Shown: piece by piece, positions 31,215-63,864 of the stretch
How the letters are laid out: each line of letters begins with the position of its first letter
Numbering within the stretch: the stretch's first letter is position 1
Source of the DNA: a virus
Length of the DNA stretch: 64,000 nucleotides
Reading direction: 5' to 3' (one strand)
IMG/VR virus record: IMGVR_UViG_3300025941_000015
Coordinates: 1 to 64,000 of that record
Program-made: the position numbers and the translations under genes
Notes under the pieces: generated by a model
Databases searched by the model: none
Seen by the model: the letters and a program-made list of their open reading frames with translations, nothing else
Told to the model about the DNA's origin: nothing

Positions 31215-31397
31215 ATGCCAGCGATCCGCTGGTTGAAGCGACCGCGTCCTGTGCTCTACCACTACGCTTGTGACAAGTGCAGGATGACTCATAGCAACTA
31301 CGTTGCACCTGACCTCTCGTCCGTCTGGCACGTCTGCAGGTACAAGACCAAGATGGGCAAGGACATGAAAGCAGAGAGGCAGATGATCCTCCAGTGA
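31215..31397 (+). CDS. small Cys/His protein
   Basis: YACDKC..WHVC; separate ATG after the kinase. Confidence 0.55.
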   Translation: MPAIRWLKRPRPVLYHYACDKCRMTHSNYVAPDLSSVWHVCRYKTKMGKDMKAERQMILQ

Positions 31398-49028: not shown

Positions 49029-49070
49029 AGGTTGCTTTCCACAACGTTGTTGTGTACAGTGGTGTCCATG
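49029..49070 (+). promoter_or_regulatory. cassette promoter P1 (variant)
   Basis: TTGCTT-17-TACAGT-7-ATG. Confidence 0.65.
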
Positions 49071-49358
49071 AGCAAATACGACACCATCGAGATCGACGTC
49101 TGCAGCGACTGCCTGAACTGGATCGCCAACGGCACCCTCCCCGACGACGGGGAGCGCGACGAAGTCAACGCCAACAGCTTCGACGCCATCACCACGGCCC
49201 CCGGCATCGACGAGGGCTACGACGTCGTGCCCGGTTCCGGCGACGACGAGGGGCACTTCTCCCACCAGCCGTGCGACGCCTGCCGCCGCCCGTTCGGTGG
49301 CCAGCGCTACAAGGCCACCATGATCTCCCCGATCCCCAACGACAGAGAGGAAGCCTGA
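49068..49358 (+). CDS. Cys-containing hypothetical protein
   Basis: CSDC..IANG..FS..PCDAC; leaderless ATG. Confidence 0.75.
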   Translation: MSKYDTIEIDVCSDCLNWIANGTLPDDGERDEVNANSFDAITTAPGIDEGYDVVPGSGDDEGHFSHQPCDACRRPFGGQRYKATMISPIPNDREEA

Positions 49359-49359
49359 C

Positions 49360-49638
49360 ATGGGCCAGATGAGTGCAGAAGAGATGGCCGCCGCCGTCGG
49401 CGAGCACGAGACCACGATGCGCATGGCGCTGACCTGGCACCTCACGAGCAACCACTTCCCCCCGGTCCACACGATGTTCGTGGACGCAGCGATGGAAGCG
49501 ATTCAGCTCGCTGCGGACGAGGACTTCGACTACGTCATCCATCTCCCCAACGACAAGGATCTGACGGTCACCGAGATCGTCGACGAGCTGCACCTGTGGC
49601 CGTTTGTCGACAACGCTCTTGGGGCAGACTTCGACTGA
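49360..49638 (+). CDS. conserved phage hypothetical protein
   Basis: L.WHL.SNH.PP. Confidence 0.75.
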   Translation: MGQMSAEEMAAAVGEHETTMRMALTWHLTSNHFPPVHTMFVDAAMEAIQLAADEDFDYVIHLPNDKDLTVTEIVDELHLWPFVDNALGADFD

Positions 49639-49808
49639 TGTCAACGGTTGACCGAGTCCTCAGCGTCTTCGCCACGCCCGACTGCCCTGACTGTCAAGGC
49701 AAGGGAGTGGTGATGGGGCGGGTCTGGCAGAACGGTCGGGCTTGGGTCAAGGACAACGACCGGATCTGCAACTGTGTTCCGAGGATCACGGTGAGCCAGC
49801 GAAACTAG
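49638..49808 (+). CDS. small Zn-finger protein
   Basis: CPDCQGKG..CNC; TGATG overlap. Confidence 0.6.
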   Translation: MSTVDRVLSVFATPDCPDCQGKGVVMGRVWQNGRAWVKDNDRICNCVPRITVSQRN

Positions 49809-49921
49809 ACCTTGGCGCTCCACCCTGGTAGGGGTCATTCAGTACGAGAGTGGCATCTCGGAAATGGGAGCGCTACATGCCACCGGAGGAGCGTCGGGTT
49901 TCGGCCCGGCGCTCTTTCGCG

Positions 49922-49965
49922 TCCTGAACCCCTATGTTCAGAAACCGATCCTGAACCCCTGTGTT
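49922..49965. repeat. 17-bp direct repeat pair in non-coding gap
   Basis: TCCTGAACCCCT(A/G)TGTT at 49922 and 49949. Confidence 0.7.
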
Positions 49966-50090
49966 TCGATTCCCGTTTCACACGGGTACAACGTGTGCTG
50001 CGGCGGGCCCCTCGCAGCATCCCGAGCGGCCCGCCGACCAAGCCCCCTCCCCCTCCGCAACGATGTTGCGATCGTGTGACGATGGGCACC

Positions 50091-50132
50091 GAGGTTGGAA
50101 CAGCGTTGTGGACCGTGTACTCTGGCCACATG
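50091..50132 (+). promoter_or_regulatory. cassette promoter P2
   Basis: TTGGAA-17-TACTCT-6-ATG. Confidence 0.8.
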
Positions 50133-50480
50133 ACACGAACCAAGCCAACCCACACACCGTCCTCGATCTACTCCGAGCCCAACCCCATGGAGCGCCTGCT
50201 CCGCCGTGCGACGTACGACCTGCGCAACGCTCAGCTCACGCTCGACGGCATCGACAAGGACATCCTCCGGCTGCGCAAGCTGGCCCGGCACTACGCCGAG
50301 GAGGGCAACCACAGCGCCAAGCGGAGCGCCAACGACCATGCCGATCGGCGGGTGCTCGAACAGCGCAAGAAGACCGTTGAGCGCGACGCCCTCCAGCAGG
50401 AGCTGGAAGTGCTCAAGGTGCTCGTGGCGAACCACGAGTACTGGGTACCGCAGCCCCGCTTCTGGGAGCAGCAGTCATGA
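50130..50480 (+). CDS. coiled-coil hypothetical protein
   Basis: Leaderless ATG after P2. Confidence 0.7.
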   Translation: MTRTKPTHTPSSIYSEPNPMERLLRRATYDLRNAQLTLDGIDKDILRLRKLARHYAEEGNHSAKRSANDHADRRVLEQRKKTVERDALQQELEVLKVLVANHEYWVPQPRFWEQQS

Positions 50481-50665
50481 CCACCTACACCGCCGTGAGG
50501 GTGTCCCTCACCGCCTTCGCCGTCATGGACGGCAACGACATCGTCGCTGTGTGCGAGAACATGGCGACCGCCCGCAAGGTCTACGACGAGACGACCGAGA
50601 TCTACGCCTCGATCCCCCGTCGGTTCAAGATCATCAAGGTTCCCTACATCAAGGACGAAGCATGA
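50477..50665 (+). CDS. hypothetical protein
   Basis: ATGA overlaps. Confidence 0.65.
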   Translation: MTTYTAVRVSLTAFAVMDGNDIVAVCENMATARKVYDETTEIYASIPRRFKIIKVPYIKDEA

Positions 50666-50982
50666 CCACCACCTCCGACACCCTCCTCCTGCTCGACAAG
50701 GCCACGGCGTACTGGTACGCCTGCGGCTACAACGACCACCGCGATGGGGACATCGCCCCGTACTGCGATCCGCACGCGTTCGCTGAGCACTGGATCGCTC
50801 TGTGCGCCCGGCCCTCTCGCCCCAGCATGCAGGACGCTTTCCAGCAGTTCGCATTCGGGGTGAAGTGCACCCGGTGCCACGGCAACGAGGTCATCACCGT
50901 CGGTGCCGACCGCCCGGACTACTGGGGCAACTACGACACCGAGGAGATCCCCTGCCCGGAGTGCCAGGGAGAGGTGGAGTGA
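50662..50982 (+). CDS. Zn-finger protein
   Basis: CTRCHG..CPECQG. Confidence 0.7.
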   Translation: MTTTSDTLLLLDKATAYWYACGYNDHRDGDIAPYCDPHAFAEHWIALCARPSRPSMQDAFQQFAFGVKCTRCHGNEVITVGADRPDYWGNYDTEEIPCPECQGEVE

Positions 50983-51173
50983 TGGACACGATCGACTACA
51001 ACGCCATGCAGGAAGCTGCCATGCACATCATCAGCGCCCAGCGCTCGCTGCCCATCATCCACACCGTCACCATCACCCTCGACGGGGCGACCGGCGGCGC
51101 CCTGGTCACCATCGAGGGATTCACCTCCGATGAGCTGGACGAAACACTCACCCTCGAAAGGACCGTCCGATGA
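50982..51173 (+). CDS. hypothetical protein
   Basis: TGATG overlap, GGAG RBS. Confidence 0.6.
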   Translation: MDTIDYNAMQEAAMHIISAQRSLPIIHTVTITLDGATGGALVTIEGFTSDELDETLTLERTVR

Positions 51174-51670
51174 CCACCCTCCCCGACCTCGACAACGACA
51201 CGTTGAAGTACACGTTCAGGAAGCAAGACCCCACGTCGTACAAGATCGTGTACAACATCTGGCGCTCGATCAACGGCCGCCCCGAGCAGAAGATCGGCAC
51301 CGTCGTCAAGACCCGCGATGGCGACTGGAGCCAGTCGGCGCACTGGGTGGCTGAGAGCAGCGACGGCGAACACCGGGGCAGTGGCGACACTCGACAGAGT
51401 GCCGTGCGCTCGCTGGAGAACCGGCTGCAAGGGCCGGAGTACACCGAGCGGAAGCTCCAGGCGTACCGCGACCAGCTTGCCGCCGAGGGCGCCAAGGCGG
51501 CCGCAGCCAAGGCGGCGGACGAGGATCTGATCGACGCCCTCATGGCCCGCTGGCCAGCGATCGCCGAGCGGTTGCTCCCGCTCCGCGAGAACGCCGGTCG
51601 CTTCACCAGCTACGCCGTCACCACTCAGCAGGTCATCGACATGCTCAACGCTCTGGAGACTTCACGATGA
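51170..51670 (+). CDS. hypothetical protein
   Basis: ATGA overlap, AAGGA RBS. Confidence 0.7.
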   Translation: MTTLPDLDNDTLKYTFRKQDPTSYKIVYNIWRSINGRPEQKIGTVVKTRDGDWSQSAHWVAESSDGEHRGSGDTRQSAVRSLENRLQGPEYTERKLQAYRDQLAAEGAKAAAAKAADEDLIDALMARWPAIAERLLPLRENAGRFTSYAVTTQQVIDMLNALETSR

Positions 51671-51723
51671 ATCTGACATCCGAGGTTGGCAACAGCGTTG
51701 CGGACGTGTACTCTGTTCACATG
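51669..51723 (+). promoter_or_regulatory. cassette promoter P3
   Basis: GAATC..TTGGCA-17-TACTCT-6-ATG. Confidence 0.8.
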
Positions 51724-52095
51724 ACCCCAACCACCATCTTCCAGTCCCTCTGGGACGCCCCGCTCTCCGCTCGTGGCTTCATGAGCATCTCGACCCACGA
51801 CGAGGTCACCTTCAACGGCCTGCAGCACGGCGAGCTGTCGATCATCGGCCTGCGCAACGTGGCGGGCCTGGGCACCACGCTCACGATCCACGAGAAGGGC
51901 AGCACGCACTGGACGGGCCGGGGCATGAAGCCCTCCTACAACGGCGCCTCGATCATCACGATCCTCATCTCGGACGACCTCTGGGCGGGCGGCACCTCGC
52001 GTCGCTACATCGAGCTGTCCCGTGCGATCTCCGCCTCGACCAGCGTCACCGAGCGCGACTCGCTCAACGCCCTCCACGTCGGGATGCTGCGATGA
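51721..52095 (+). CDS. hypothetical protein
   Basis: Leaderless ATG after P3. Confidence 0.7.
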   Translation: MTPTTIFQSLWDAPLSARGFMSISTHDEVTFNGLQHGELSIIGLRNVAGLGTTLTIHEKGSTHWTGRGMKPSYNGASIITILISDDLWAGGTSRRYIELSRAISASTSVTERDSLNALHVGMLR

Positions 52096-52283
52096 GCCCC
52101 GAGCTGACCAACGCCCTGGTCGCTGCACACCGCTCTGCGCAGCTCGCTGCCAGCAACGCTCGTGAAGCCCTGAGCTACGCACAGACGGCCCTCAGGAAGG
52201 CCCAGGAGGCCGCTGACGAGGCGGACCTCGCCGCTGCGCACATCGCCGGTGCCTTCAAGATCGTTGAGCAGGACGCACGATGA
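52092..52283 (+). CDS. small Ala-rich coiled-coil protein
   Basis: ATGA overlaps. Confidence 0.6.
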   Translation: MSPELTNALVAAHRSAQLAASNAREALSYAQTALRKAQEAADEADLAAAHIAGAFKIVEQDAR

Positions 52284-52537
52284 GCGCCCGCCCGAAGCTC
52301 GTGCCCGGCCACACGTACCGGTTCACGTTCACGCCGACCGAGGCGCTCATCGCTGCGAGGCCGTACAACGTGACCCCCTACACCACCACCGTGACCATCA
52401 GCACGACGCCCGGTGGCGTGCACACGCCCAAGTCGGTCACGATGTGGGCGAACCGCTGGTGCACCCGTGGCCGGTACACGGTCGAGATCGTCGAATTGGT
52501 CGAGGAATCTGCCTCCGAGGTTGTAACGGCGTTGTGA
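52280..52537 (+). CDS. hypothetical protein
   Basis: ATGA overlap; stop lies inside P4. Confidence 0.6.
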   Translation: MSARPKLVPGHTYRFTFTPTEALIAARPYNVTPYTTTVTISTTPGGVHTPKSVTMWANRWCTRGRYTVEIVELVEESASEVVTAL

Positions 52538-52558
52538 GCCGTGTATCTTGATCACATG
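52505..52558 (+). promoter_or_regulatory. cassette promoter P4
   Basis: GAATC..TTGTAA-17-TATCTT-6-ATG. Confidence 0.8.
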
Positions 52559-52897
52559 ACCGCAACCACCACCACCGCACCCGCCACCTACGCCAAGGCC
52601 GCCGCCGTCGCCGAGCAGATCACGCTCGCCGAACTGGCCGAACTGCTCGCCGCCGACGACAACCCGGACGTCTACCCCGGCAAGGGCAAGCGCAAGCAGA
52701 TCGCCATGAACGCCCGCCTGCGGGTGAACACGCTCGACACGGGCGCCACCCGCGGCTGGGTCGGCTACGACCGCTGCACCTTCGGCACCGGCTACACGAC
52801 CTTCGACGGCGTCACGGTCGGCTACCGCTACGACCGGCCCGTGTTCCGCTTCGAGCGCCACGGCGTCCGCATCGTGCAGGTCGTGGTCCCGTCATGA
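52556..52897 (+). CDS. hypothetical protein
   Basis: Leaderless MTATTTT start. Confidence 0.7.
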   Translation: MTATTTTAPATYAKAAAVAEQITLAELAELLAADDNPDVYPGKGKRKQIAMNARLRVNTLDTGATRGWVGYDRCTFGTGYTTFDGVTVGYRYDRPVFRFERHGVRIVQVVVPS

Positions 52898-53076
52898 GCA
52901 GCAAGAGCACGGCCGCCCGTCGGGCATCGCAGGCCCGGTCGAACTACGCCGCCATGAAGCGGGCGTCCGACCAGGGCAAGAAGCAACTGGCGTGCCCCCA
53001 CGAGGTCGTCAACCCCGTTGAGGGGTTCGAGGGCATGATCCAGTGCGCCGCCTGTGGCGCCTACGGACCTTTCTGA
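52894..53076 (+). CDS. small Zn-binding protein
   Basis: CPH..CAACG. Confidence 0.65.
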   Translation: MSSKSTAARRASQARSNYAAMKRASDQGKKQLACPHEVVNPVEGFEGMIQCAACGAYGPF

Positions 53077-53077
53077 G

Positions 53078-53131
53078 GAATCACCTCATCGACGTTGCAA
53101 CGACGTTGAAACGGTGTACACTGGCCACATG
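53078..53131 (+). promoter_or_regulatory. cassette promoter P5
   Basis: GAATC..TTGCAA-16-TACACT-6-ATG. Confidence 0.8.
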
Positions 53132-53458
53132 ACAAACACCACCATCACCTCCGCCTGGAACTGCAACGACACGACCAGGACCGCCTCCGTCCTCACGGCC
53201 GAGCAGGCCGCTGCTGCGGGCATCCTGCTCGCCGACGACGACGAGTTCGTCATGAACCTCCGCTCCTGGGACGTCGACGCCCCGTTCTTCATCATCGGCC
53301 GCTTCACCGGCCGCACGCGTCGCATGTGGCAGGAGACGTGCCGCACGATCGAGACCTTCGATGTCGAGACCGTCGCCATCGAGGACGACCGCGACGGGAC
53401 GTTCGCCATCTGGGGCGTCAGCGGCGCACGGCGCAAGGGCACCTGGGCCTGCCGCTGA
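53129..53458 (+). CDS. hypothetical protein
   Basis: Leaderless MTNTT start. Confidence 0.7.
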   Translation: MTNTTITSAWNCNDTTRTASVLTAEQAAAAGILLADDDEFVMNLRSWDVDAPFFIIGRFTGRTRRMWQETCRTIETFDVETVAIEDDRDGTFAIWGVSGARRKGTWACR

Positions 53459-53466
53459 TCTGCGCA

Positions 53467-53532
53467 GGTCGCTCCGGGCGGGGCGACCGTGCGCGTGCCG
53501 GGGAGACGGGTAGACGGGACCGTCTCCCCGGC
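53467..53532. terminator. tandem GC-rich hairpins
   Basis: GGTCGCTC/GGGCGACC and GCCGGGGAGACGG/CCGTCTCCCCGGC. Confidence 0.55.
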
Positions 53533-53548
53533 GACAACATCGTACGAA

Positions 53549-53602
53549 GAATCCTCCCTCTGACGTTGGAACAGCGTTGAAGACGTGTACACTGATCACA
53601 TG
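53549..53602 (+). promoter_or_regulatory. cassette promoter P6
   Basis: GAATC..TTGGAA-16-TACACT-6-ATG. Confidence 0.8.
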
Positions 53603-53902
53603 ACCGCAACCACACTCTCCACCACATTCGGCCCCGTCAAGACGGGCTCGACCGCCGCCTTCATCGCTGTTGTCAAGGCCGAGCGCCTGTGCCGCATCGG
53701 CACGACGTCCGTCGAGGGCACCAAGGTGCTCTGGCGTGCCGAGACCAGCCAAGCGCTGGAGACGCGCCTGCGCCGGGCTGGCCTGGGCCGCTCGTCCGAG
53801 TCCGGCCTGTGGTTCATGCGTGGCCGCTCCTCGTTCGCCGAGGGCGCCATCGTCCCCGGCGAGCTGATCGCCACGGTCGAGATCGTCGAGGTGGCCAAGT
53901 GA
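53600..53902 (+). CDS. hypothetical protein
   Basis: Leaderless MTATT start. Confidence 0.7.
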   Translation: MTATTLSTTFGPVKTGSTAAFIAVVKAERLCRIGTTSVEGTKVLWRAETSQALETRLRRAGLGRSSESGLWFMRGRSSFAEGAIVPGELIATVEIVEVAK

Positions 53903-54093
53903 GCCGCCGCATCTTCCCCACGTTCGAGGCGTTCGTCCAGTACCACCCGATGTACCTCCAGAACCGGTACGGCGGCAAGTGCTTCGAGTGCGGGCAGTTC
54001 GTCCCACAGTTCAAGGGCAGCGTGGTCAAGGTGCACGGGAAGCACCGCATCGCCCACCTCCCGGTCGAGGGCCATTGCGAGGGTGCGAAGTGA
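53899..54093 (+). CDS. small Zn-binding protein
   Basis: NRYGGKCFECG..H..C; GTGA overlap. Confidence 0.65.
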   Translation: MSRRIFPTFEAFVQYHPMYLQNRYGGKCFECGQFVPQFKGSVVKVHGKHRIAHLPVEGHCEGAK

Positions 54094-54146
54094 TTCTTCC
54101 ACACCGAGGTTGCAATGCCGTTGAAGACGTGTACACTGACCACATG
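54092..54146 (+). promoter_or_regulatory. cassette promoter P7
   Basis: GATTC..TTGCAA-16-TACACT-6-ATG. Confidence 0.8.
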
Positions 54147-54908
54147 ACAAACACCACCACCAACACCGCCCCGAACGCCCACCAAGCCGAAGTCGACGGC
54201 CGCATCGCCGAGGCGAGCGTCGCCTACGCCAAGGCCGCCCAGAACGCCGCCTGGTGGGAGAAGCACACCACGTCCGCCTACGACGGCGAAGCCAAGCTCG
54301 CCGAGGCCGTCGCCAAGCGCGACGACACCCTGGCCGCCCTCTCCGCGGTCGAGGCCGAGTTCGAGGGCTGGAGCCGCTTCTTCCTCGTGCAGGCCAGCAA
54401 CGGCCACATCCACAAGAGCCTGTGGTGCTCGACGTGCTTCCCCACGACGCAGTACGCCTGGCTCCCGGCCCTGTCCGGCCTGACCGAGGCCGAGGCCGTC
54501 GCCGAGTACGGCGGCATCCTCTGCTCGATCTGCTTCCCCTCCGCCCCGGTCGAGTGGACGACGGGCACGAACAAGAAGGACGCCGAGCGCAAGGCCGCTG
54601 AGGCCGCCTTGAAGGCGATCGCCAAGACGCCCGAGGGCAAGGCCGTCATCCGCAAGCGCGACCTCGTGCGCAGCCACCAGTACGCGATCGACTCGTTCGA
54701 CCGCACGATCGCACGGCCCGCCGAGACGATCGCATTCGCCGCCAGCCGGGGCATCACGGTCACGCTCGACGACGAGCGCGTCGCCAAGGAAGTGCAGTGG
54801 GCCAACGAGGCCCAGGCCAAGCGCGAGCCCGTCGTCAAGAAGCTGGCCAAGGCCCAGGCGCAGCTCGACGTCGCCGAGGCGGCGCTGAACGCCGCTCTGG
54901 GGATCTGA
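54144..54908 (+). CDS. conserved actinophage Zn-binding protein
   Basis: GWSRFFLV..GHIH..CSTC..WLP.LSG..LCSICFPSAP. Confidence 0.8.
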   Translation: MTNTTTNTAPNAHQAEVDGRIAEASVAYAKAAQNAAWWEKHTTSAYDGEAKLAEAVAKRDDTLAALSAVEAEFEGWSRFFLVQASNGHIHKSLWCSTCFPTTQYAWLPALSGLTEAEAVAEYGGILCSICFPSAPVEWTTGTNKKDAERKAAEAALKAIAKTPEGKAVIRKRDLVRSHQYAIDSFDRTIARPAETIAFAASRGITVTLDDERVAKEVQWANEAQAKREPVVKKLAKAQAQLDVAEAALNAALGI

Positions 54909-54912
54909 TCAG

Positions 54913-54966
54913 GAATCACCTCCACGACGTTGCAACGGCGTTGTGGAGGTGTACACTGATCACATG
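54913..54966 (+). promoter_or_regulatory. cassette promoter P8
   Basis: GAATC..TTGCAA-16-TACACT-6-ATG. Confidence 0.8.
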
Positions 54967-55188
54967 ACTGCAACCACCACCTCCGTTTCCACCCTCGCCG
55001 CAGGCGCCGTCATGGGCGCCGCGGCCCGCTGCTTCGCCGTTGGCGACACGGGCCCCAAGAAGGGCCACCGCATCATCGCTGAGATGCGCGGCGAGCGCGT
55101 CGGAGCCGAGGCCGAATGGTTCGCCCTGTGCGGCGTGCTCGCGCTCGTCCGCTTCGTCAAGGTCTCGGGCATCACTGAGATCTTCTGA
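54964..55188 (+). CDS. hypothetical protein
   Basis: Single-gene cassette between P8 and P9. Confidence 0.7.
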   Translation: MTATTTSVSTLAAGAVMGAAARCFAVGDTGPKKGHRIIAEMRGERVGAEAEWFALCGVLALVRFVKVSGITEIF

Positions 55189-55189
55189 G

Positions 55190-55243
55190 GAATCACCGTC
55201 GCAACGTTGCAACAGCGTTGCGACGGTGTACACTGTTCACATG
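55190..55243 (+). promoter_or_regulatory. cassette promoter P9
   Basis: GAATC..TTGCAA-16-TACACT-6-ATG. Confidence 0.8.
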
Positions 55244-55501
55244 ACACAAACCACCACCATCGCATCCGCCTCCGCCTACGACACCCCGCACTGGCTGCGC
55301 AACGCCGGGCTCGACGTCGAGGGCACGCACGAGGCATTCGTCGTGCTGTTCGACGACCTCGACCAGGCGCTCGCCTGCGTCAAGCTGGCCAGCGCCCAGG
55401 CGTTCGCCGCCTACGTGCGCCAGGGCGGCAACGCCCGCAACAAGCGTGCGTTCAGCGCCCAGTTCGCAGCCGTGACCAAGGCCCTCCGGGCCGCAGCCTG
55501 A
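55241..55501 (+). CDS. hypothetical protein
   Basis: Leaderless MTQTTT start. Confidence 0.7.
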   Translation: MTQTTTIASASAYDTPHWLRNAGLDVEGTHEAFVVLFDDLDQALACVKLASAQAFAAYVRQGGNARNKRAFSAQFAAVTKALRAAA

Positions 55502-55534
55502 CCAACCACCACCAAGGAGAGAACCCCCACCACC

Positions 55535-55801
55535 ATGAGCGCAGCTCGATACACCGTCATCGGAGCGTGGCACGACCACGACTCCACGTACTTCCCCTTC
55601 ATCGTCCAGGCCGCCGACCTCTTCGACAACCGCTCGAAGCAGCTCTACAGCAACGGCGCCATGCGCGTCGTCTTCGACGGCAAGCCCGCCGTGCGCGGCA
55701 AGGGCGGCACAACGCCCTTCAAGGGCGAGACCGCCTGGGCGCACGCTGAGAGCCTCGCACGCTCCCTGCAGGTCTCTGAGCGCTACGTGAGGACCGTCTG
55801 A
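55535..55801 (+). CDS. hypothetical protein
   Basis: AAGGAG RBS; FKGETAW..AE motif. Confidence 0.7.
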   Translation: MSAARYTVIGAWHDHDSTYFPFIVQAADLFDNRSKQLYSNGAMRVVFDGKPAVRGKGGTTPFKGETAWAHAESLARSLQVSERYVRTV

Positions 55802-56324: not shown

Positions 56325-56364
56325 GGTTGGAACAGCGTTGTGCGTCGTGTATCTTGATCACATG
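56323..56364 (+). promoter_or_regulatory. cassette promoter P10
   Basis: TTGGAA-17-TATCTT-6-ATG; 33 bp identical to P4. Confidence 0.8.
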
Positions 56365-56807: not shown

Positions 56808-56827
56808 GCGTGTACACTGACCACATG
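56787..56827 (+). promoter_or_regulatory. cassette promoter P11
   Basis: TTGGAA-16-TACACT-6-ATG. Confidence 0.8.
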
Positions 56828-57142: not shown

Positions 57143-57303
57143 GCACGCTCATCCACTACGGCAAGCCGCGCACGCGGTCGTTCCCGACCGACGTCGACAT
57201 CTGGCTCCCCGAGGGCGCCATCGTCCTCCACACCGAGCGCCATCGCGCTGCCACGGTCATCACGTACCTCGTGCCGAGCGGGCGCACGTCGAGGCCCATC
57301 TGA
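57139..57303 (+). CDS. small hypothetical protein
   Basis: GTGA overlap; stop at the TGAGGAATC of P12. Confidence 0.55.
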   Translation: MSTLIHYGKPRTRSFPTDVDIWLPEGAIVLHTERHRAATVITYLVPSGRTSRPI

Positions 57304-57304
57304 G

Positions 57305-57358
57305 GAATCTCACAACGGCGTTGCAAGAGCGTTGTGACCGTGTACACTGGTCACCATG
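57305..57358 (+). promoter_or_regulatory. cassette promoter P12
   Basis: GAATC..CAACGGCGTTGCAA-16-TACACT-7-ATG. Confidence 0.8.
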
Positions 57359-57478
57359 ACAGGCAACCAAGACCACGACCAAGACCGCCGCTTCCCGGCC
57401 ATGACCGCCACCCGCTACGGCAGCAACCACGACTGGTGCTACCGGGGCGACAACACCAAGTACAAGAACAAGAAGTGA
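57356..57478 (+). CDS. 40-aa leaderless peptide
   Basis: ATG at P12, open to TGA 57476. Confidence 0.5.
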   Translation: MTGNQDHDQDRRFPAMTATRYGSNHDWCYRGDNTKYKNKK

Positions 57479-57545
57479 GCCCCAGCGGCCACTGTCACAC
57501 CCCCCAGTCACACTGAATCCCCTACCCAACGAAACCAGGAGAACC

Positions 57546-57929
57546 ATGACCACCACCATCAGCAACCCCGAGGTCCGCTCGACCGACCTCCTCGTGCACG
57601 AGCTGCTCGTGCAGCTCCGGGCCGCCGAGCGCGCCGAGGAGCGCGCCGACGCCATCAAGGCCGAGCTGGTCGAGCGCCTGGGCGACGGCGGCAAGGTTGA
57701 GACCCACGAGGCGAAGATCGCCATCGTGGCCAACAAGACCCAGGTCGTCGACATCGACGCCCTGCAGACCGTCGCCTCGAAGGGCTTCTTCTACAAGGTC
57801 ACCAAGCGGGTCGTCGACAACACCGCCTTCAAGGCGTTCCTCGCCCTGGAGCAGGTGCCCCAGGACGTGCTCGACATCGTGACCACGAAGGTCAGCAAGC
57901 CCGCCGTCCGAGTCACGATCAAGAAGTGA
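57546..57929 (+). CDS. Gam/gp157-like hypothetical protein
   Basis: AGGAG RBS; coiled N-terminus, VD...F..V..P.VRVT. Confidence 0.6.
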   Translation: MTTTISNPEVRSTDLLVHELLVQLRAAERAEERADAIKAELVERLGDGGKVETHEAKIAIVANKTQVVDIDALQTVASKGFFYKVTKRVVDNTAFKAFLALEQVPQDVLDIVTTKVSKPAVRVTIKK

Positions 57930-58093
57930 TCCTCGACGACGGCCACCAGCACCACGTCGAGATCGAGCGTGAGAACCTCCCGCCCCGCTCGTGGTACCCA
58001 CGCTGCGACTGCGGCTGGGAGGGGTTCGGCCAGGCGTCTCGACGTGACGCTGAGGACGACGGCGACGGCCACGTCCTCAGCTTCACCCGCTGA
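57926..58093 (+). CDS. small Zn-finger protein
   Basis: H..CDCGW..H; GTGA overlap. Confidence 0.6.
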   Translation: MILDDGHQHHVEIERENLPPRSWYPRCDCGWEGFGQASRRDAEDDGDGHVLSFTR

Positions 58094-58175
58094 TCGCCCG
58101 TCGACGTGAGGCCGGTCAGGTAGGTGGCGCCACTGACGACCGGCCACAGCGCCCGGTAAAGCCGGATCGGGTTGG

Positions 58176-58208
58176 GAGCGCCCTCTGCACACCGCAGGGG
58201 GCGCTCTC
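58176..58208. terminator. GC-rich hairpin upstream of ParB-like gene
   Basis: GAGCGCCCTCTGC-ACACC-GCAGGGGGCGCTC. Confidence 0.55.
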
Positions 58209-58223
58209 GCGTACGCTGGAGCC

Positions 58224-58991
58224 ATGGAGTCTCGATCGAGGAGCCGGGCGCCGTCGGGCGCCGACCCGCACCTCGCTGCGCGCCTGGGGCGCCAGCAGGA
58301 GAACCGTGATCGCATCATCGGTGCGGGCGCCGGTCGCGAGCGCGTGCTGGGCAATCGAGCTGCGCTCTTCGAGGCCGGTGAGATCGACTTCGACCCGCAC
58401 ACGCTGTCGATGGAGTCGCTGGGCATCCGCAACGTCGAGCGCGACGTGCTGCACAACCGTGTCGAGAACAAGGTGCCGTACGGGCCGCACGATGCGTCGG
58501 TGTTCCGCAAGGCTGGTGAGGTGCGAGAGGTGCCCCTGACGGGCCCTGACGCCGTCACAACGATGCAGAGCCACGTGAGCCCCGCACGTGTCGCTGAGAT
58601 CGTCAGAGACCCGCACAGCGGCTCTGATCCACGCTTCCGAGGCACGCCTGCAGCCGAGATGCCACTGGTCGTCGAGCACATGACGCGCCACCCGGAGACG
58701 GGCGCCTGGGGCCGCACGAACGTGGTCTACAACGGCAACCACCGCATCGTCGCGGCCCTGCAGCAGGGGCAGACCTCGATCCCCGCTCGTGTCATCACGA
58801 GGGAGCAGCGCGAGTCTGCGTCCGACGTGTTCCGGCGAGACAGGACGCGCTTCAAGGACTCACGAGAGCAGCGCCTCGATGTCGGCAGCACCCGCCTGGT
58901 GATGGGCGATCCCACGATCAAGAGGGGCATGGGCGCTGGCATCTGGGACGAGGTCGCCAAGCAGGACATCGAGAACTACGGGAATACCTAG
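58224..58991 (+). CDS. ParB/Srx-like domain protein
   Basis: TMQSHV, MPLVV..VVYNGNHRIVAALQQG...IPARV. Confidence 0.7.
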   Translation: MESRSRSRAPSGADPHLAARLGRQQENRDRIIGAGAGRERVLGNRAALFEAGEIDFDPHTLSMESLGIRNVERDVLHNRVENKVPYGPHDASVFRKAGEVREVPLTGPDAVTTMQSHVSPARVAEIVRDPHSGSDPRFRGTPAAEMPLVVEHMTRHPETGAWGRTNVVYNGNHRIVAALQQGQTSIPARVITREQRESASDVFRRDRTRFKDSREQRLDVGSTRLVMGDPTIKRGMGAGIWDEVAKQDIENYGNT

Positions 58992-58996
58992 CCCGG

Positions 58997-59037
58997 CAGG
59001 TTGCAACTGCGTTGTGGTCGTGTACACTGGCCACATG
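58997..59037 (+). promoter_or_regulatory. cassette promoter P13
   Basis: TTGCAA-16-TACACT-6-ATG. Confidence 0.8.
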
Positions 59038-59403
59038 ACCTACCACACCACCACCCCCGCCAACTACACCCCCGTCCTTGGCTCCGTTGTCCCCGGACCC
59101 TGGAACTCGAAGTACGCCGTCTCGGAGCACACGCTCGCCGTGAACCTCGCCAGCACCGCTGCGATCGAGGACGACGACCACACGGTCGTCCGGGCGATCG
59201 ACGACGCCGTCGCCGTGTTCGAGGACGACGACCTCATCAACGACGGCTCGATCCGAGGCTTCTGGGCCTGGGTCTGGAGCGGGCTCGACCGCGGCACGCA
59301 GCGTGACGTCGCCAAGCGCGCCGAGGCGCTCCTCGAAGCGCACCGCGCTGGCGGGTACGGCAGCAAGGCCGACCTCTTCGAGATGTTCGACGGCCAGCGG
59401 TGA
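59035..59403 (+). CDS. hypothetical protein
   Basis: Leaderless MTYHTTT start. Confidence 0.7.
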   Translation: MTYHTTTPANYTPVLGSVVPGPWNSKYAVSEHTLAVNLASTAAIEDDDHTVVRAIDDAVAVFEDDDLINDGSIRGFWAWVWSGLDRGTQRDVAKRAEALLEAHRAGGYGSKADLFEMFDGQR

Positions 59404-59564
59404 GCGCGCTCACTGGCAAGGCGCTCGTCGAGCACCGCCGGGACCGCCTCGCCGACCTCGTCGAGATGCGGGCCCGGCAGGCCGCCGAGCTGGCCGAGAC
59501 CGATGAGGCGATCGCCGAGTGCATCGCCTCGATCCTCGACGCAGCCTCCGAGGAGCTGTCATGA
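59400..59564 (+). CDS. small coiled-coil protein
   Basis: GTGA and ATGA overlaps. Confidence 0.55.
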   Translation: MSALTGKALVEHRRDRLADLVEMRARQAAELAETDEAIAECIASILDAASEELS

Positions 59565-60196
59565 ACCAGAGTCACGAGGATTGGCTCAACGCCGCCGGAG
59601 ACCCGGCCGCCACGCACGCCCTGATCAACCAGGCGGGCTCGTACGAGAACGGCCCGCACCAGCTCCCCCACACCACGCTGATCGCCGGGCTGATGTACGG
59701 GGCAGGCGCCCTCTACGTGCCGAAGGGCCGTGCGCAGTTGTGGTACGCCCTCGTCGTCCCGCTGTTCATCGCCGGGTGCCACTTCCTCCGCGACGGGGGC
59801 CGCACCCCGGCCTCTGAGTCATCGTGGTGGTGGTACGGCGAGTTCCACCAGACCCCGCTCTCGCTGTTCTTCTTCGCCCTGTCGATCGCCAGCGTGTTCC
59901 TGCTGAACGCCGAGGTGAACCGGCACAAGCGTGCCCGGTACTACGCCGCGGCCGCTGCCGCTCAGCTCGACGCAGACACCGCCTGGATCGCTCAGGGCGG
60001 GCGCACGGTCGTCGAGGCGACGGTTCGCTCTCACAACGACGTTGAGCCCTCACAGGGCCACACAGCGCCTCTCCCGACGTTGTGGCTGCCGAGCAGCCCC
60101 GAGCGCCGGGTGCGCCGTGGCGGCACGACGCTCAACGGCACACCGATCAAGGATCGCCGATCGGTCAACCCCGAGACACTCTTCGACGAGTACTGA
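59561..60196 (+). CDS. membrane protein (3 TM)
   Basis: GAGGAG RBS; hydrophobic segments. Confidence 0.7.
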   Translation: MNQSHEDWLNAAGDPAATHALINQAGSYENGPHQLPHTTLIAGLMYGAGALYVPKGRAQLWYALVVPLFIAGCHFLRDGGRTPASESSWWWYGEFHQTPLSLFFFALSIASVFLLNAEVNRHKRARYYAAAAAAQLDADTAWIAQGGRTVVEATVRSHNDVEPSQGHTAPLPTLWLPSSPERRVRRGGTTLNGTPIKDRRSVNPETLFDEY

Positions 60197-60203
60197 CAAC
60201 CCA

Positions 60204-60240
60204 TGGTTGCAACAGCGTTGTGACCGTGTACACTGCACAC
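60204..60240 (+). promoter_or_regulatory. cassette promoter P14 (leadered)
   Basis: TTGCAA-16-TACACT, then CA-rich leader with GGAG before ATG 60269. Confidence 0.8.
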
Positions 60241-60268
60241 CGACCCCTACCCACTGGAGAACGCCACC

Positions 60269-61000
60269 ATGGCACGAATCAACACCGTCAAGAGCGCGCA
60301 GCAGCGCTACCGCACCGTCCCCGTCCTCGACGAGGCGGGCCAGCCCAAGAGCACCCCGGTGCTCCGCAAGGACGGCACGCCCAAGACCACCAAGACCGGC
60401 CGGGCCATCACCCGCCGGGTGACGGTCGCCGACAAGACCCAGCCGCTGCCCAACCACACGTGCGGCAAGTGCGGTGTGGAGATCGAGGTCGGCCACCCGT
60501 ACCGCTGGGTGCAGATCAAGAGCGGCCCGTACGGCGGACGCACGATGTACCGCTGCATGAGCTGCCCCTCGTGGCGCCAGTCCGAGCTGACCAGCTCGAA
60601 GATGGCGGGCATCTACGCCGCCCAGGAGCACCTGAGCGACATCATCGACAGCCTGGAGACGGTCGACGATCTCACCGACGCAGCGCAGACGTTCGCCGAT
60701 GCCGTCCGCGAGGTCGGCGAGGAGTACCGCGAGTCGCAGTCCAACATGGTCGACGGCTTCGGCCACGACACCTCGATGAGCGACGAGCTGGGCGAGAAGG
60801 CCGACATGCTCGACGACTGGGCGAACGACATCGAGTACCTCGACTTCGAGGACTTCGACGAGGAGCCGCCCGAGGAGGACGACTTCGAGGATGAGGACGC
60901 CTTCGAGACCGCCAAGGAGGACTGGAACGCGAACGCTGACGCCCACTGGGAAGACCAGCGCGCCGTCCTCATCGACGCATCGGACGAGTGCCCGCTCTGA
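60269..61000 (+). CDS. Zn-finger + acidic coiled-coil protein
   Basis: CGKCG..I..G..Y.W..CMSC..LTSS; very acidic C-half. Confidence 0.75.
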   Translation: MARINTVKSAQQRYRTVPVLDEAGQPKSTPVLRKDGTPKTTKTGRAITRRVTVADKTQPLPNHTCGKCGVEIEVGHPYRWVQIKSGPYGGRTMYRCMSCPSWRQSELTSSKMAGIYAAQEHLSDIIDSLETVDDLTDAAQTFADAVREVGEEYRESQSNMVDGFGHDTSMSDELGEKADMLDDWANDIEYLDFEDFDEEPPEEDDFEDEDAFETAKEDWNANADAHWEDQRAVLIDASDECPL

Positions 61001-61260
61001 TGCGCAAGCGGGCCGTGCTCGAACACATCGGCAAGTACGTCGAGATCGAGCACGGCCCGTTCCGGCCCCGCAGCCTGGCCATCGTGCTGGGCTACGGGTA
61101 CCGGCAGCGCCACGGTCGCGGCTCGCCGCTCGAAGAAGACTGGACGTCGCGCTCAGGCGGCAGCCAGGTCGCCGTGGCCATGCGCCACGAGGACGGCTCG
61201 TGGACCCCCGAGGCCGTCCATCTGATTTCAATCCACCGATGCTCCGAGGAGGAGTCATGA
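61000..61260 (+). CDS. hypothetical protein
   Basis: TGATG overlap. Confidence 0.6.
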   Translation: MRKRAVLEHIGKYVEIEHGPFRPRSLAIVLGYGYRQRHGRGSPLEEDWTSRSGGSQVAVAMRHEDGSWTPEAVHLISIHRCSEEES

Positions 61261-61619
61261 ACCGAGATGCCCCCATTCTGCGACTGGTCACACCGGCCGT
61301 CGATCACGCTGTTGACGTCGTCATGCACAACGCTGACCCCGAGCGCTTCCACCGCCAGCACGGCGTGCCGTGCGAGCTGTGCCCCGAGCCCGAGACCGAG
61401 CTGCAGAAGGAGATCGCTCGCAAGATCGATGAGCTGATGGGTGACACCGAGATGGCCCCGTGGCAACGCAAGCTGGCCAGCGAGGTGCTCGCCGCACAGA
61501 TGGCGCCTGACAGCATCGAGATGTCCGACGCACTGCAGACCTACCTCGACGACCGCAGCCTGATGGCTGACCCCGGCGAGATCGAGGACGACGAAGATGA
61601 CGAAGAGATTGACGAGTGA
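61257..61619 (+). CDS. acidic hypothetical protein
   Basis: GAGGAG RBS; CELC; stop abuts P15. Confidence 0.65.
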   Translation: MNRDAPILRLVTPAVDHAVDVVMHNADPERFHRQHGVPCELCPEPETELQKEIARKIDELMGDTEMAPWQRKLASEVLAAQMAPDSIEMSDALQTYLDDRSLMADPGEIEDDEDDEEIDE

Positions 61620-61658
61620 GGTTGCAACGGCGTTGCGACCGTGTACACTGATCACATG
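61618..61658 (+). promoter_or_regulatory. cassette promoter P15
   Basis: TTGCAA-16-TACACT-6-ATG. Confidence 0.8.
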
Positions 61659-62369
61659 ACCAACGCCACCGCAACCCCCCGCCAGTTCGACTTCATCGCC
61701 AAGCTCGTTGACGAGCGCAAGGCCACCTGCGGCGTCACCGACGTCGCCGCCTTCATGCAGGTGCTCGCCGACCAGCGCCTCACCAAGACCGGCGCCAGCG
61801 CCCTCATCGACAACCTGCTCTCGCAGAAGCCGGACGCCAAGGTCGCCCCGGCCCCGGTCGCAGGCGCCACCCCGGCCCAGCCCGCGGTGCGCCCCAACCG
61901 CTTCGACGCCAAGTGCGACCGCTGCGGCAAGAACGTGCCCGCGGGCACCGGCACGCTCAACGGTGGCCCTGGCCGCTGGATCGTCGCCCACGTCGAGGGT
62001 GGCTGCCCGGTCGACCTGCAGGTCGAGCTGAACCAGCTCCTCGCCGAGATCCCCAAGGGCTACTACGCCATCCCGTTCATCGGCCTCGACGCCGCCCGCA
62101 ACGACCTCACCTTCCTCGCCGTCGGCACGAAGGACAACGGCGACCGCACGCTGCGCCACGTGGTCGGTGGCCACGGCGAGCTGGACGGCATGAGCATCGA
62201 GTGGTGCCGCCGGGCCGTCGCCGGGCTCAACGCCACGAGCCTCGAAGTGGCAGCCGCCACCTACGGCCAGGAGTACTCCCACTGCGGACGCTGCGGCCGG
62301 TCGCTGACCGACGACGCCAGCCGTGCCCGCGGCATCGGCCCGGAGTGCGCCACCAAGCTCTGGAGCTGA
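61656..62369 (+). CDS. DUF6011-domain protein
   Basis: AT.RQ..FI..L..AS.LID.L N-terminus; CGRCGRSLTD..SRARGIGPECA. Confidence 0.85.
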   Translation: MTNATATPRQFDFIAKLVDERKATCGVTDVAAFMQVLADQRLTKTGASALIDNLLSQKPDAKVAPAPVAGATPAQPAVRPNRFDAKCDRCGKNVPAGTGTLNGGPGRWIVAHVEGGCPVDLQVELNQLLAEIPKGYYAIPFIGLDAARNDLTFLAVGTKDNGDRTLRHVVGGHGELDGMSIEWCRRAVAGLNATSLEVAAATYGQEYSHCGRCGRSLTDDASRARGIGPECATKLWS

Positions 62370-62375
62370 CCACGG

Positions 62376-62418
62376 CAACGGGGTTGCGATTGGCGCAACC
62401 CCGTGTACACTGACCACA
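62376..62418 (+). promoter_or_regulatory. cassette promoter P16 (leadered, hairpin variant)
   Basis: TTGCGA-16-TACACT inside an 11-bp inverted repeat. Confidence 0.7.
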
Positions 62419-62459
62419 CCCTTCCCCTACCAATGACAACCACCAAGGAGACCACCAAC

Positions 62460-63170
62460 ATGAACACCGACACCACGATCCTCGTCTCGAAGATCGAGAA
62501 GCTCTGGCGCAAGGCCAACAGCGCGGGCTCGACCCCGGCCGAGCGTGACACGTTCGAGGCCAAGGCCCTGAGCCTCATGGAAGAGAACCGCATCACGATG
62601 GCGATGCTGGAGATCGACGACCAGGACATCCTGGGCGACTACGAGTACGGCGACATCTCGGGCCGCTACGCCCGGCCCGTGCTGGCCATCTTGACCGCCG
62701 TGGCCCACGCCTACGACTGCAAGGTCTGGTGGCGCGACTTCGGCTCGACGAAGCAGGTCTGGCTGTTCGGCTTCAAGAGCGACTGCGAGCGCACCAAGCT
62801 GCTCGCCCGCATGCTCATCGCCGATGCGCAGGCGCAAGCCACGTCCGAGTCGGGCTACTCGCCCGGCGAGACGTTCTCGTTGCGCCACAGCTTCCTCCAC
62901 GGCTTCTCGTCGGCGATCGCCATGCGTCTCCGCGAGGCCGCCGTCATGGCCAACAAGGCGTTCGACCAGGAGGCCGCCAAGGGCTCCGCCCTGGTGCTCG
63001 TGGCCCGCCGTGAGCAGATGCACGTGGAGTACTCGAAGAAGCGCCTGCGCAGCGCCAGCCCGAGCTACGCCCGTCGGGGCGGCGCCCGTGGCCGCGGCGT
63101 CGAGGCGGGCAACAACGCCCGTCTCTCGACGCAGGGGCAGGTCGTCAACCGCAAGGCGCTCGCATCATGA
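62460..63170 (+). CDS. DUF2786-domain protein
   Basis: KIEKL.RKA...T.AE..F..KA..LM; FG..SD; SFL.GF..I..RL; AAGGAG RBS. Confidence 0.85.
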   Translation: MNTDTTILVSKIEKLWRKANSAGSTPAERDTFEAKALSLMEENRITMAMLEIDDQDILGDYEYGDISGRYARPVLAILTAVAHAYDCKVWWRDFGSTKQVWLFGFKSDCERTKLLARMLIADAQAQATSESGYSPGETFSLRHSFLHGFSSAIAMRLREAAVMANKAFDQEAAKGSALVLVARREQMHVEYSKKRLRSASPSYARRGGARGRGVEAGNNARLSTQGQVVNRKALAS

Positions 63171-63673
63171 GCAGCGACCCCGACAAGGACACGGTGTACG
63201 CCGCTGAGGCGCTCGCCTTCCTGGGCACGCCCCTCGCAGACCGCCAGCAGGAGTCGAGCATCGTGGAGGGCTACCACACGATGCTCGACGCCCCCTGGTG
63301 GAAGTGGGGCACCATCGAGATCCGCCAGGCACGCGCCGACATGGTGCGCGCAGGCGGGTACGCCAGCCTGTTCGGCATCAGCACGAGCGCTGGCCGCGTG
63401 GAGCGCTACACGATCAGCCACGAGCTGGCTCACATGGTGGTCAAGCGCCAGGGCATCTGTGATCGACACGGGCCCCAGTTCCGCACGGCGCACCTGTACA
63501 CCGTCGGTGCCGGGTTCGGCCGCCAGTACGCAGACCTCCTCGCTCAGGCGTACGAGGACTACAACCTCCCGGTGTTCCTCACGCCGGGTGGGCTGGGCAT
63601 CCCCCCGGTGCCCACGATCAACATCGATGCTCTCAGCATCGCAGCAGCCCCTCGGGGCGGATGGAGAAGGTAA
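63167..63673 (+). CDS. TIGR04338-like HEXXH metallohydrolase
   Basis: VYAAE, HELAH, HGPQF; follows DUF2786. Confidence 0.85.
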   Translation: MSSDPDKDTVYAAEALAFLGTPLADRQQESSIVEGYHTMLDAPWWKWGTIEIRQARADMVRAGGYASLFGISTSAGRVERYTISHELAHMVVKRQGICDRHGPQFRTAHLYTVGAGFGRQYADLLAQAYEDYNLPVFLTPGGLGIPPVPTINIDALSIAAAPRGGWRR

Positions 63674-63864
63674 TGATGGTTCACACAACGGACATCGCAG
63701 GCATCCGCGACATCGCTCAGCACTTCGGTGTGAAGCCCAACGTCGTCAGCAACTGGTCAGCTCGCTACAGCGACTTCCCCGCGCCGATCGCAGAGGTGGC
63801 TGCTGGCCGCCTGTGGGATCTGCAGGAGGTCGTCGAGTGGTACAACGATCGCTGGGCATCGTGA
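63673..63864 (+). CDS. small excisionase/AlpA/BldC-like HTH protein
   Basis: G..DIA..GV...VSNW..R..DFPAP..GRLWD..V.EW. Confidence 0.8.
   Translation: MMVHTTDIAGIRDIAQHFGVKPNVVSNWSARYSDFPAPIAEVAAGRLWDLQEVVEWYNDRWAS

Follow-up and report, generated by a model that had tools for sequence, protein, structure and literature searches.

The window analysed here is a stretch of 64,000 nucleotides that forms bases 1-64000 of the 105,626-bp IMG/VR virus record IMGVR_UViG_3300025941_000015, which CheckV rates as 100% complete. At 49068..63864 (+) it carries an array of about 40 small co-oriented genes in 16 units, each headed by a copy of a repeated element with the layout of a promoter followed almost directly by a start codon. 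The record has a GC content of 64% and its genes lie almost all on the + strand. Tail genes occupy 1-25 kb of the window, and a replication module, encoding a DnaB-like helicase, a further helicase, PolA, a UvsX-like recombinase and a queuine-transferase-like protein, occupies 26-48 kb.

A preliminary description of this DNA had listed sixteen co-oriented copies of the element. All sixteen positions do hold it, and every copy is on the + strand. The whole-genome motif search that the description proposed, carried out with a profile derived from the copies, brings the total to 18: sixteen in the window (P1 to P16) and two past its end, with -10 boxes at 64589 and 64994. It confines the element to 49.0-65.0 kb (49,024 to 65,014), and nothing comparable was found elsewhere in the 105,626 bp. 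Sixteen copies match with E <= 5e-12, P16 with 6e-7 and the degenerate P1 with 0.014; the next-best match is a partial one at 70397 (E 0.019). A strict pattern gives 7 matches, against 0.00 in shuffled sequence. A grammar independent of the family (TTGNNN, 16-18 nt, TANNNT, 6-7 nt, ATG or GTG, open reading frame (ORF) of at least 40 aa) returns 16 forward sites, 15 of them in the array, and 0 reverse sites, where a Markov null gives a mean of 0.17. Neither an 11-mer screen nor a generic leaderless-promoter scan revealed another repeat family of comparable kind. An exact-motif scan of IMG/VR gave a single unrelated match, and a reference-genome scan with the motif gave chance singletons only.

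Each copy consists of a -35 hexamer TTGCAA or TTGGAA, a spacer of 16-17 nt containing GCGTTG, the string GTG-TACACT with the -10 hexamer, 6 nt and ATG; the two hexamers at that spacing are present in 17-18 copies. A consensus built on 48-50 unique copies from the window genome and its relatives reads, in order, an optional GA-GAAT module, 9-12 nt, cgAgGTTGcAAcaGCGTTGtG, 2-3 variable nt, GTGTACACTG, 2 nt, CACATG and aCc..caCCaccacc. Conservation thus reaches beyond the hexamers, to the GCGTTG of the spacer, the GTG ahead of the -10 box and the CAC preceding the ATG. The stop codon of the upstream gene often lies within cTGAGGAATC or TGAGGTTG at the start of the element. Stops abutting or inside the element had been noted before, and they are indeed found at the TGAGGAATC copies (53074, 55186, 57301) and where ORFs end at 52537, 56324, 56807 and 61619. 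The idea that the element stops translation in all three reading frames was rejected, as 0 of 18 copies do so.

All the units are on the + strand. P1 (49024..49070) has TTGCTT, 17 nt, TACAGT and 7 nt before its ATG at 49068. P2 (50085..50132), with a leaderless ATG at 50130, heads five genes that reach to 51670. P3 (51666..51723; ATG at 51721), where the upstream stop lies within ATGAATC, heads three genes. P4 (52502..52558; ATG at 52556), which carries the GAGGAATC module and has the upstream stop at 52537 within its spacer, heads two. P5 (53074..53131; ATG at 53129), a TGAGGAATC copy, heads a single gene, and the P5-P6 spacer holds a GC-rich hairpin without a T tract (approximately 53500..53529, +), a possible unit end. 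P6 (53546..53602; ATG at 53600) precedes two genes, P7 (54099..54146; ATG at 54144) a 254-aa phrog_2433 gene conserved in the sister clade described below, and P8 (54910..54966; ATG at 54964) a 74-aa gene. Four-gene units follow the TGAGGAATC copies P9 (55186..55243; ATG at 55241) and P12 (57301..57358; ATG at 57356). Between them lie P10 (56316..56364; ATG at 56362) and P11 (56784..56827; ATG at 56825), the latter with a cargo protein of core CDTCYD. P13 (58992..59037; ATG at 59035) heads three genes, P14 (60200..60271) has a 34-nt leader with GGAG before its ATG at 60269, and P15 (61617..61658; ATG at 61656) heads a DUF6011 gene. P16 (62374..62435) combines a hairpin containing TTGCGA with 16 nt, TACACT, a 21-nt CA-rich leader and ATG at 62433. 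Its unit has six genes, a DUF2786/DUF7168 gene being the first, and includes a gene for a 67-aa helix-turn-helix (HTH) DNA-binding protein (63661..63864; phrog_597, E 1.5e-8). The last copy, beyond the window, heads a 509-aa SNF2 helicase gene. At 58190..58226 (+) we also noticed a strong hairpin, GCG-TACGCT, 6 nt and the ATG at 58224 of gene 58224-58991, with no convincing -35 box; this is possibly a decayed nineteenth copy.

The whole array comprises 45 genes with a median product of 92 aa, mostly without family match; it is to this block of short genes, largely without known function, that the repeat is confined. The 45 proteins are mutually unrelated save one weak pair. The preliminary description was right in calling the genes small and unrelated, and its range of 1-4 genes per unit has to be widened to 1-6. 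Recognised cargo is limited to the DUF6011, DUF2786/DUF7168, SNF2 helicase and 67-aa HTH proteins, and atlas look-ups of two conserved cargo proteins returned viral hypothetical clusters only. With cargo that is almost entirely of unknown function, the host-takeover or anti-defence role put forward in the preliminary description is a conjecture. GC content at the third codon position of the array ORFs is 0.86-0.97. Downstream genes of a unit mostly overlap the preceding stop or carry their own Shine-Dalgarno sequence.

Promoter geometry, predicted leaderless starts and the threonine tag

The start codon stands at a nearly fixed distance from the -10 hexamer, 6 nt (twice 7 nt) in 16 of the 18 copies. 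Within the window this agrees with the 14 of 16 copies claimed earlier, the exceptions being P14 (34 nt) and P16 (21 nt). The predicted start base is the A of the ATG, with C before it, in 16/18 copies. The sequence pattern of an actinobacterial leaderless SigA promoter, TANNNT 6-7 nt before the ATG or GTG of a genuine ORF, likewise fits 16/18. The hexamers fit the looser actinobacterial TTGnnn / TAnnnT pattern, and the bases conserved in them, canonically spaced (TTG; T, A and last T in the -10 hexamer), are those most critical for recognition by sigma factors of the sigma-70 family.

The 16 leaderless starts were compared with the 27 internal starts of the same block. A Shine-Dalgarno-like word lies upstream of 1/16 leaderless and 13/27 internal starts. 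The C+A fraction of codons 2-8 is 0.85 against 0.62, the first 40 nt fold with -1.7 against -9.8 kcal/mol, and threonine occupies codon 2 in 14/16 against 5/27. Leaderless mRNAs account for 20-25% of mycobacterial and Streptomyces genes (PMC9031893), and CA repeats after the start codon enhance leaderless translation, according to a passage of that article citing Martin-Farmer and Janssen 1999. The exact geometry, the lack of Shine-Dalgarno words, the unstructured CA-rich 5' ends and a like architecture in the sister clade support well, at the sequence level, the SigA-type promoter with a leaderless start that the preliminary description had put forward. Promoter activity, a transcript that starts at the ATG and an early timing of expression are inferences.

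The element does not end at the start codon. Behind the ATG follow about seven codons forming a G-poor ACC/ACA run, which gives N-termini such as MTATTT (the "MTTT" tag). G makes up 8% of tag bases, and ACG is used in 1 of 57 tag threonine codons, compared with 38% of threonine codons genome-wide. As the tag is G-poor and its threonine codons avoid ACG, selection appears to act on it at the RNA level and not at the protein level.

The tag is part of the repeat and not of the cargo gene. The P11 cargo (core CDTCYDTKTID) starts with MTTTMS- in the window and with MTSTFT- in the related contigs L027 and L028. Its homologue in L040, where a 63-aa gene is inserted between promoter and cargo, starts with MS-, and the one in L041, a coupled second gene, starts with VS-. 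In L041 a P8-type head is fused in frame with the leader of the homologue of gene 55535. At site 59545/59555, in the region of unit P13, L019 and L048 have an extra head followed by MT(N/H)TTTPK, each with a different cargo. Separately, the window genes at 50477, 50662, 51170, 57546 and 62433 start with MTT(T) though no leaderless promoter immediately precedes them; possibly these are former heads stripped of their promoter, or heads displaced downstream by an insertion as in L040.

Hairpins and a candidate operator

P8, P9 and P16 form strong hairpins (-26 to -28 kcal/mol for 45 nt) whose loop holds, or lies close to, the -35 box. The P8 hairpin (54920..54948, +) has arms of 10-11 bp and the -35 box in its loop, the P9 hairpin (55197..55225, +) has the same geometry with a different arm sequence, and the P16 hairpin (62378..62404, +), 11 bp with a 5-nt loop, ends at the -10 box. 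P5, P12, P14 and P15 have stems of 8-9 bp and the other copies have none. Four distinct sequences of the P8/P9 family, the L041 orthologue among them, keep a 10-pair helix fully (100%) paired, and 3 pairs are changed on both sides; slid controls give 30-59% pairing and no two-sided changes. The sense strand folds better than the antisense strand (-13.6 vs -10.1 kcal/mol), and G-U oppositions exceed A-C ones (12 vs 2), although these hairpin statistics are inflated because the copies are related to one another. Better folding of the sense strand and the excess of G-U over A-C point to a role at the RNA level. A hairpin common to all copies was considered and rejected, since it is confined to a sub-family. 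A search of Rfam found no RNA family.

The -35 box and the GCGTTG of the spacer together form the palindrome CAAC-N3-GTTG, exact in 10 of 18 copies and with 7 of 8 bases in the others. Genome-wide it occurs 30 times against 2.4 expected (about 12-fold), and other spacings occur 0-5 times. Seventeen of the 30 lie outside the array, mostly inside genes and many of them deep in structural genes. In the window these include sites starting at 3698, 6727, 9377, 10103, 22157 and 24154 and one at 31295..31305, 100 nt before the helicase gene. One CAAC-N3-GTTG site, at 50058, lies in the 320-bp non-coding P1-P2 gap (49809..50129, +), together with two tandem copies of the 11-mer TCCTGAACCCC. This 11-mer has seven exact copies, all on the + strand (30787, 39493, 43986, 47141, 48609, 49922, 49949), five within genes of the replication module and two in the gap; allowing 1 mismatch raises the count to 16 on the + strand, with 4 on the - strand.

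Five of the palindromes cluster at 69719-70687 (L072:5719-6687), in or near a 340-bp non-coding stretch. The cluster adjoins a minus-strand HNH endonuclease gene (69941-70378), with the promoter-like partial copy at 70397. Another minus-strand gene near it (genome 68624-68980) has a weak homologue at the matching position of the sister genome G002 (38% over 47 aa, E 4e-7); no recognisable domain was found in it. G002 itself holds 20 palindromes against 2.5 expected, with N3 spacing only, six of them as CAACG-N-CGTTG in a 1.3-kb cluster at 39249-40546. By sequence, the palindrome system is family-wide, and its fusion to promoters appears specific to the clade of the window, because just 2 of the G002 copies lie in its promoter array. 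That the palindrome is an operator, as proposed in the preliminary description, is plausible: it overlaps the -35 box and spacer, and is enriched at that spacing only. The 67-aa HTH protein of unit P16 is a candidate for its regulator.

Gene gain, loss and order among relatives

A scan of metagenome contigs for the -10/start word yielded 16 related soil and rhizosphere contigs, 75-99% identical to the window, with 43 further copies. Between relatives and window we found 23 junctions, of which 14 touch the repeat. L018 is without the P8 gene, and its context switches from P8 to P9 inside a common GGTGTACACTG, an 11-bp core. In L034 the P16 hairpin is joined to the P15 gene inside a 13-bp common core. 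Assembly chimeras generated by k-mers are unlikely at these two junctions, because cores of 11 and 13 bp fall below the usual k-mer size of assemblers. Two contigs from different samples, L018 and L047, are without the P6 unit, and L041 has a P4-like unit at the P10 position, replacing the P10 unit. Insertions in L040, L019 and L048 lie right behind a head or came together with one. The other nine junctions are at plain gene boundaries, namely in L042 (gene 52092-52283 lost), in L016 and L041 (gene 57926-58093 lost) and in L035. The breakpoint check suggested in the preliminary description places 14 of the junctions at the element, and the remaining nine show that the repeats are not the sole joints.

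SNF2 homologues pointed to more distant relatives. Some have 62-73% SNF2 identity and are encoded on contigs of 12-71 kb, those with 71-73% on contigs of 12-26 kb. A sister clade in IMG/VR (L075-L080, 52-55% identity) includes the complete 111,140-bp genome G002. The sister clade writes its repeat in another dialect: tGAGAcGTTG(C/T)AC, CGTTGAACG, CTGCTAYNNT, 6-7 nt, ATG or GTG and ACCACCACC. The grammar described above matches G002 at 12 forward sites, 9 of them in 21.9-32.1 kb, and at 0 reverse sites.

Synteny between the window genome and G002 was compared at the protein level. The replication genes are colinear in 17 of 17 cases. Apart from the tail match 15779, attributed to a repeated domain, order is also largely kept in the tail block and in the 74-83-kb block, and the head block is mostly colinear, with two genes out of order. 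The array is scrambled: its nine shared genes, all on the same strand, have the rank order 4,3,9,8,7,1,5,6,2, with Kendall's tau about -0.22. Further translocations inside the sister clade are confined to the array. Cassette order thus differs between relatives; an identical order would have counted against the shuffling proposed in the preliminary description. Crossovers inside the -10 core among close relatives, and an array scrambled against G002 while other modules are colinear, make the repeat well supported as a recombination joint by the sequences compared.

In the whole record no tyrosine (PF00589) or serine (PF00239) recombinase was found, in a search whose controls were positive in 14/14 and 12/14 genomes, respectively. 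A UvsX/RecA-like recombinase is encoded by the phage. Since an integron-type recombinase was not found and this enzyme is present, homologous exchange between heads would be an economical mechanism. The integron-like array of the preliminary description is not sustained, each unit having its own promoter and no recombinase of either family being found.

Interpretation, rival explanations and related systems

The virus belongs to a lineage with no close cultured member: none of the cultured phages is close to the 105-kb record, and a megablast of the array against them matched nothing. The closest cultured PolA, at 29% identity, is that of Streptomyces phages of the BRock group, and the SNF2 helicase has 32% identity to those of Arthrobacter phages. 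Streptomyces phage Alone3, the top cultured PolA match, was rejected as a relative, being an unrelated tRNA-rich myovirus. A single-protein locus search with PolA found no relatives. Array proteins match only phages of Mycobacterium, Microbacterium, Arthrobacter, Gordonia, Rhodococcus and Streptomyces, and for this reason the host is likely actinobacterial. No tRNAs were found in the record. Its final 126 nt duplicate bases 81-206 and an ORF spans the joined ends; probably the assembly is circular or permuted and its overlap ragged, despite the linear listing in IMG/VR. Two other sites past the window may be mentioned. At genome 74150-74310 (L072:10150-10310) the gene for a 139-aa protein without family match is preceded by a promoter-like site of its own, which has a leader (TTGCGC, 18 nt, TAGAGT, AAGGAG, ATG). 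At genome 88.0-90.2 kb (L073, about 4000-6200) several 11-mers, GCAAGAAGATC and CAAGCGCATCA among them, are present 5-6 times. They probably belong to a protein with internal repeats, and the gene filter returned no + strand ORFs in this region.

We consider it likely that the repeats are compact, portable expression heads for accessory genes of a lytic actinobacteriophage-like virus. Host RNA polymerase with a principal (SigA/HrdB-type) sigma factor would start the transcript on the A of the ATG, because the ATG lies exactly 6 nt past the -10 region. The G-poor ACC/ACA tag would keep this 5' end unstructured for leaderless initiation by 70S ribosomes, and the later genes of a unit would be translated through stop/start coupling or from their own Shine-Dalgarno sequences. 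The hairpins with the -35 box in the loop would probably damp read-through from the upstream unit, and a palindrome-binding protein probably switches all copies together. As the heads are 45-60 bp of near-identical co-oriented DNA, homologous recombination between them could delete, re-head, insert or move units, in the way of the PeSL elements discussed below. Tentatively, it is tempting to propose a wider picture: a family of soil actinophages of about 105-111 kb whose self-contained heads (stop, operator, promoter, start and a G-poor, translation-enhancing tag that forms the N-terminus of any gene joined behind it) recombine with one another, possibly via excised circles, and so reshuffle one block while the rest stays colinear, and in which a KorB-like palindrome regulator captured the promoters in this clade.

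Several observations weigh against this interpretation. Of the 12 positions of the E. coli consensus the hexamers match 8, and a consensus scan calls none of them. Strong hairpins are limited to 3-5 of the 18 copies, fixed-register covariation across all copies is weak (2.45 vs 2.12 pairs), and no T-tract terminator was found on the + strand, including after any hairpin. The exact palindrome is present in just 2 array promoters of G002, so that the operator is no fixed part of the architecture. The excess at the third codon position of the cargo is modest (0.093 vs 0.062 and 0.056). As to recombination, the close relatives are a biased sample, having been found via the motif itself on short metagenome contigs, and the duplicated end of L034 is possibly an assembly artefact. 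With nine of 23 junctions lacking the repeat, repeats are not over-represented among gene boundaries, about 40% of which carry one.

This last point speaks for a role of the repeats in regulation only, with gene flux due to general illegitimate recombination at gene boundaries, where repeats happen to sit. About 40% of breakpoints fall in repeats, equal to the 40% of gene boundaries with a repeat, and the plain-boundary junctions of L042, L016, L035 and parts of L041 fit as well. We think it unlikely, however, since several junctions have repeats on both sides and switch within the common core, identical heads stand before different cargo at one site, and scrambling is limited to the block with repeats, sparing modules of equal age, which are colinear. 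Clade-specific dialects of the repeat also speak against it, and suggest that copies are kept alike within a genome or co-evolve with a lineage-specific factor. Co-oriented small unrelated genes separated by a repeat with inverted repeats resemble an integron-like site-specific cassette system. Such a system is scarcely credible here, given that neither integrase family was found in a record rated 100% complete, that each unit has its own promoter rather than one common promoter, and that crossover points vary within the repeat.

Other alternatives concern expression. Conservation well beyond the two hexamers (GCGTTG, GTG, CAC), the match of just 8/12 to the E. coli consensus and the clade-specific dialect around the -10 box could reflect middle-class or factor-dependent promoters, needing a phage activator or a modified polymerase that reads GCGTTG and GTG. 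We regard this as quite improbable: the conserved bases are key sigma-70-family positions at canonical spacing, no phage sigma region 4 was found in the record, and no comparable second repeat family emerged from the 11-mer screen or the generic scan. A search for a T7-type RNA polymerase was also empty, although its control was uninformative. The 30 dispersed palindromes, five of them clustered in a non-coding stretch beside a minus-strand gene with a weak homologue at the matching sister position, recall the stoperators of cluster A and the 17-bp repeats of cluster O. They could serve as operators for an immunity-type repressor, the phage being temperate or plasmid-like and the array silenced in the carrier state. 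Against so doubtful a reading stand the lack of a tyrosine or serine integrase in the record, a minus-strand gene without a recognisable DNA-binding domain and the many palindromes deep in structural genes. It is very improbable, finally, that the element works mainly as RNA, as a terminator, processing or stability hairpin between units, with the hexamers incidental. Better folding of the sense strand, the ratio of G-U to A-C of 12 to 2 and three pairs with compensatory changes would suit it, but a strong hairpin is found in a minority of copies, and conservation is highest in the -35 and -10 hexamers and in their fixed distance to the ATG, none of which a hairpin needs.

Among known systems, the one nearest to such portable expression heads is the PeSL (promoter-early stem-loop), a mobile regulatory cassette described for T4-type phages (Arbiol et al. 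2010; Comeau et al. 2014). It is a repeated stop-to-start composite with an early sigma-70 promoter and a stem-loop, is found in hyperplastic regions and gives rise to indels and mini-circles (PMC2839356, PMC4122927). Common to both are a host-type early promoter (here predicted), a stem-loop (here in some copies), a block of small unknown genes, and indels or replacements between relatives that are bounded by the motif, with crossovers inside it. In contrast to the PeSL, which ends with a Shine-Dalgarno sequence and start codon, the present element has a start codon and a Shine-Dalgarno-like word in 1/16 cases. It continues into the ORF as a G-poor threonine tag, with the transcript predicted to start on the ATG. 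Its stem-loop is optional, shares sequence with the promoter, whose -35 box it holds in the loop, and is without a T tract, and an operator-like palindrome is built in. It also occurs in an actinophage-like and not a T4-like lineage: PolA, SNF2 and cargo all point to actinophages and not to a T4-type myovirus.

Parts of the architecture have parallels in actinophages. Leaderless SigA-type promoters are known from actinobacteria and their phages (PMC9031893), examples being the single promoters PL1, PR2 and PL2 of cluster O mycobacteriophages (PMC4351075). TANNNT likewise stands 6-7 nt before their start codon, with +1 on the first codon base, and the host range fits, but the known cases are single and dissimilar, whereas here 18 near-identical copies with a common coding tag lie in 16 kb. 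The same cluster carries the 17-bp palindrome TGTTCGG-N3-CCGAACA in more than 30 copies (PMC4351075). CAAC-N3-GTTG shares with it the 3-bp centre and more than 20 dispersed copies within and between genes; it differs in sequence, in its shorter arms (4-5 bp) and, in this clade, in forming part of the -35 box and spacer in a family of promoters. Cluster A stoperators, as mentioned in PMC3203893, differ in being asymmetric and orientation-dependent. The SAS of cluster K mycobacteriophages, a 13-bp word resembling a ribosome-binding site (RBS), GGGATAGGAGCCC, 3-7 bp before the ATG (PMC3203893), is also a co-oriented repeat beside the ATG of non-structural actinophage genes, sometimes with an upstream stop. 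Unlike the present element, however, SAS is without promoter hexamers and the inverted repeats of ESAS do not covary; no AGGAG-type word precedes the leaderless starts described here. Integrons differ in needing an adjacent tyrosine-recombinase integrase and promoterless cassettes, and neither was found here. The host-takeover module of Bacillus phage SPO1 and the early promoters of T4 place many strong host-sigma promoters before small early genes, and their early mRNAs have leaders with a strong RBS. These promoters are not known as shuffling joints, except for PeSLs.

The present array is a new, leaderless variant of the T4-type promoter cassettes. The shuffling of promoter cassettes, which the literature consulted describes only for T4-type phages with Gram-negative hosts, would thereby extend, in RBS-free form, to phages of high-GC actinobacteria. 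The 18 natural copies and about 50 from the relatives make up a set of presumed minimal leaderless signals with a defined downstream enhancer. Such a set is useful for research on how 70S ribosomes initiate on leaderless messages, and as a source of short expression elements for Streptomyces or mycobacteria. With one block scrambled and its neighbours colinear, the role of the repeat in the gain and loss of accessory genes is directly testable in existing soil metagenomes.

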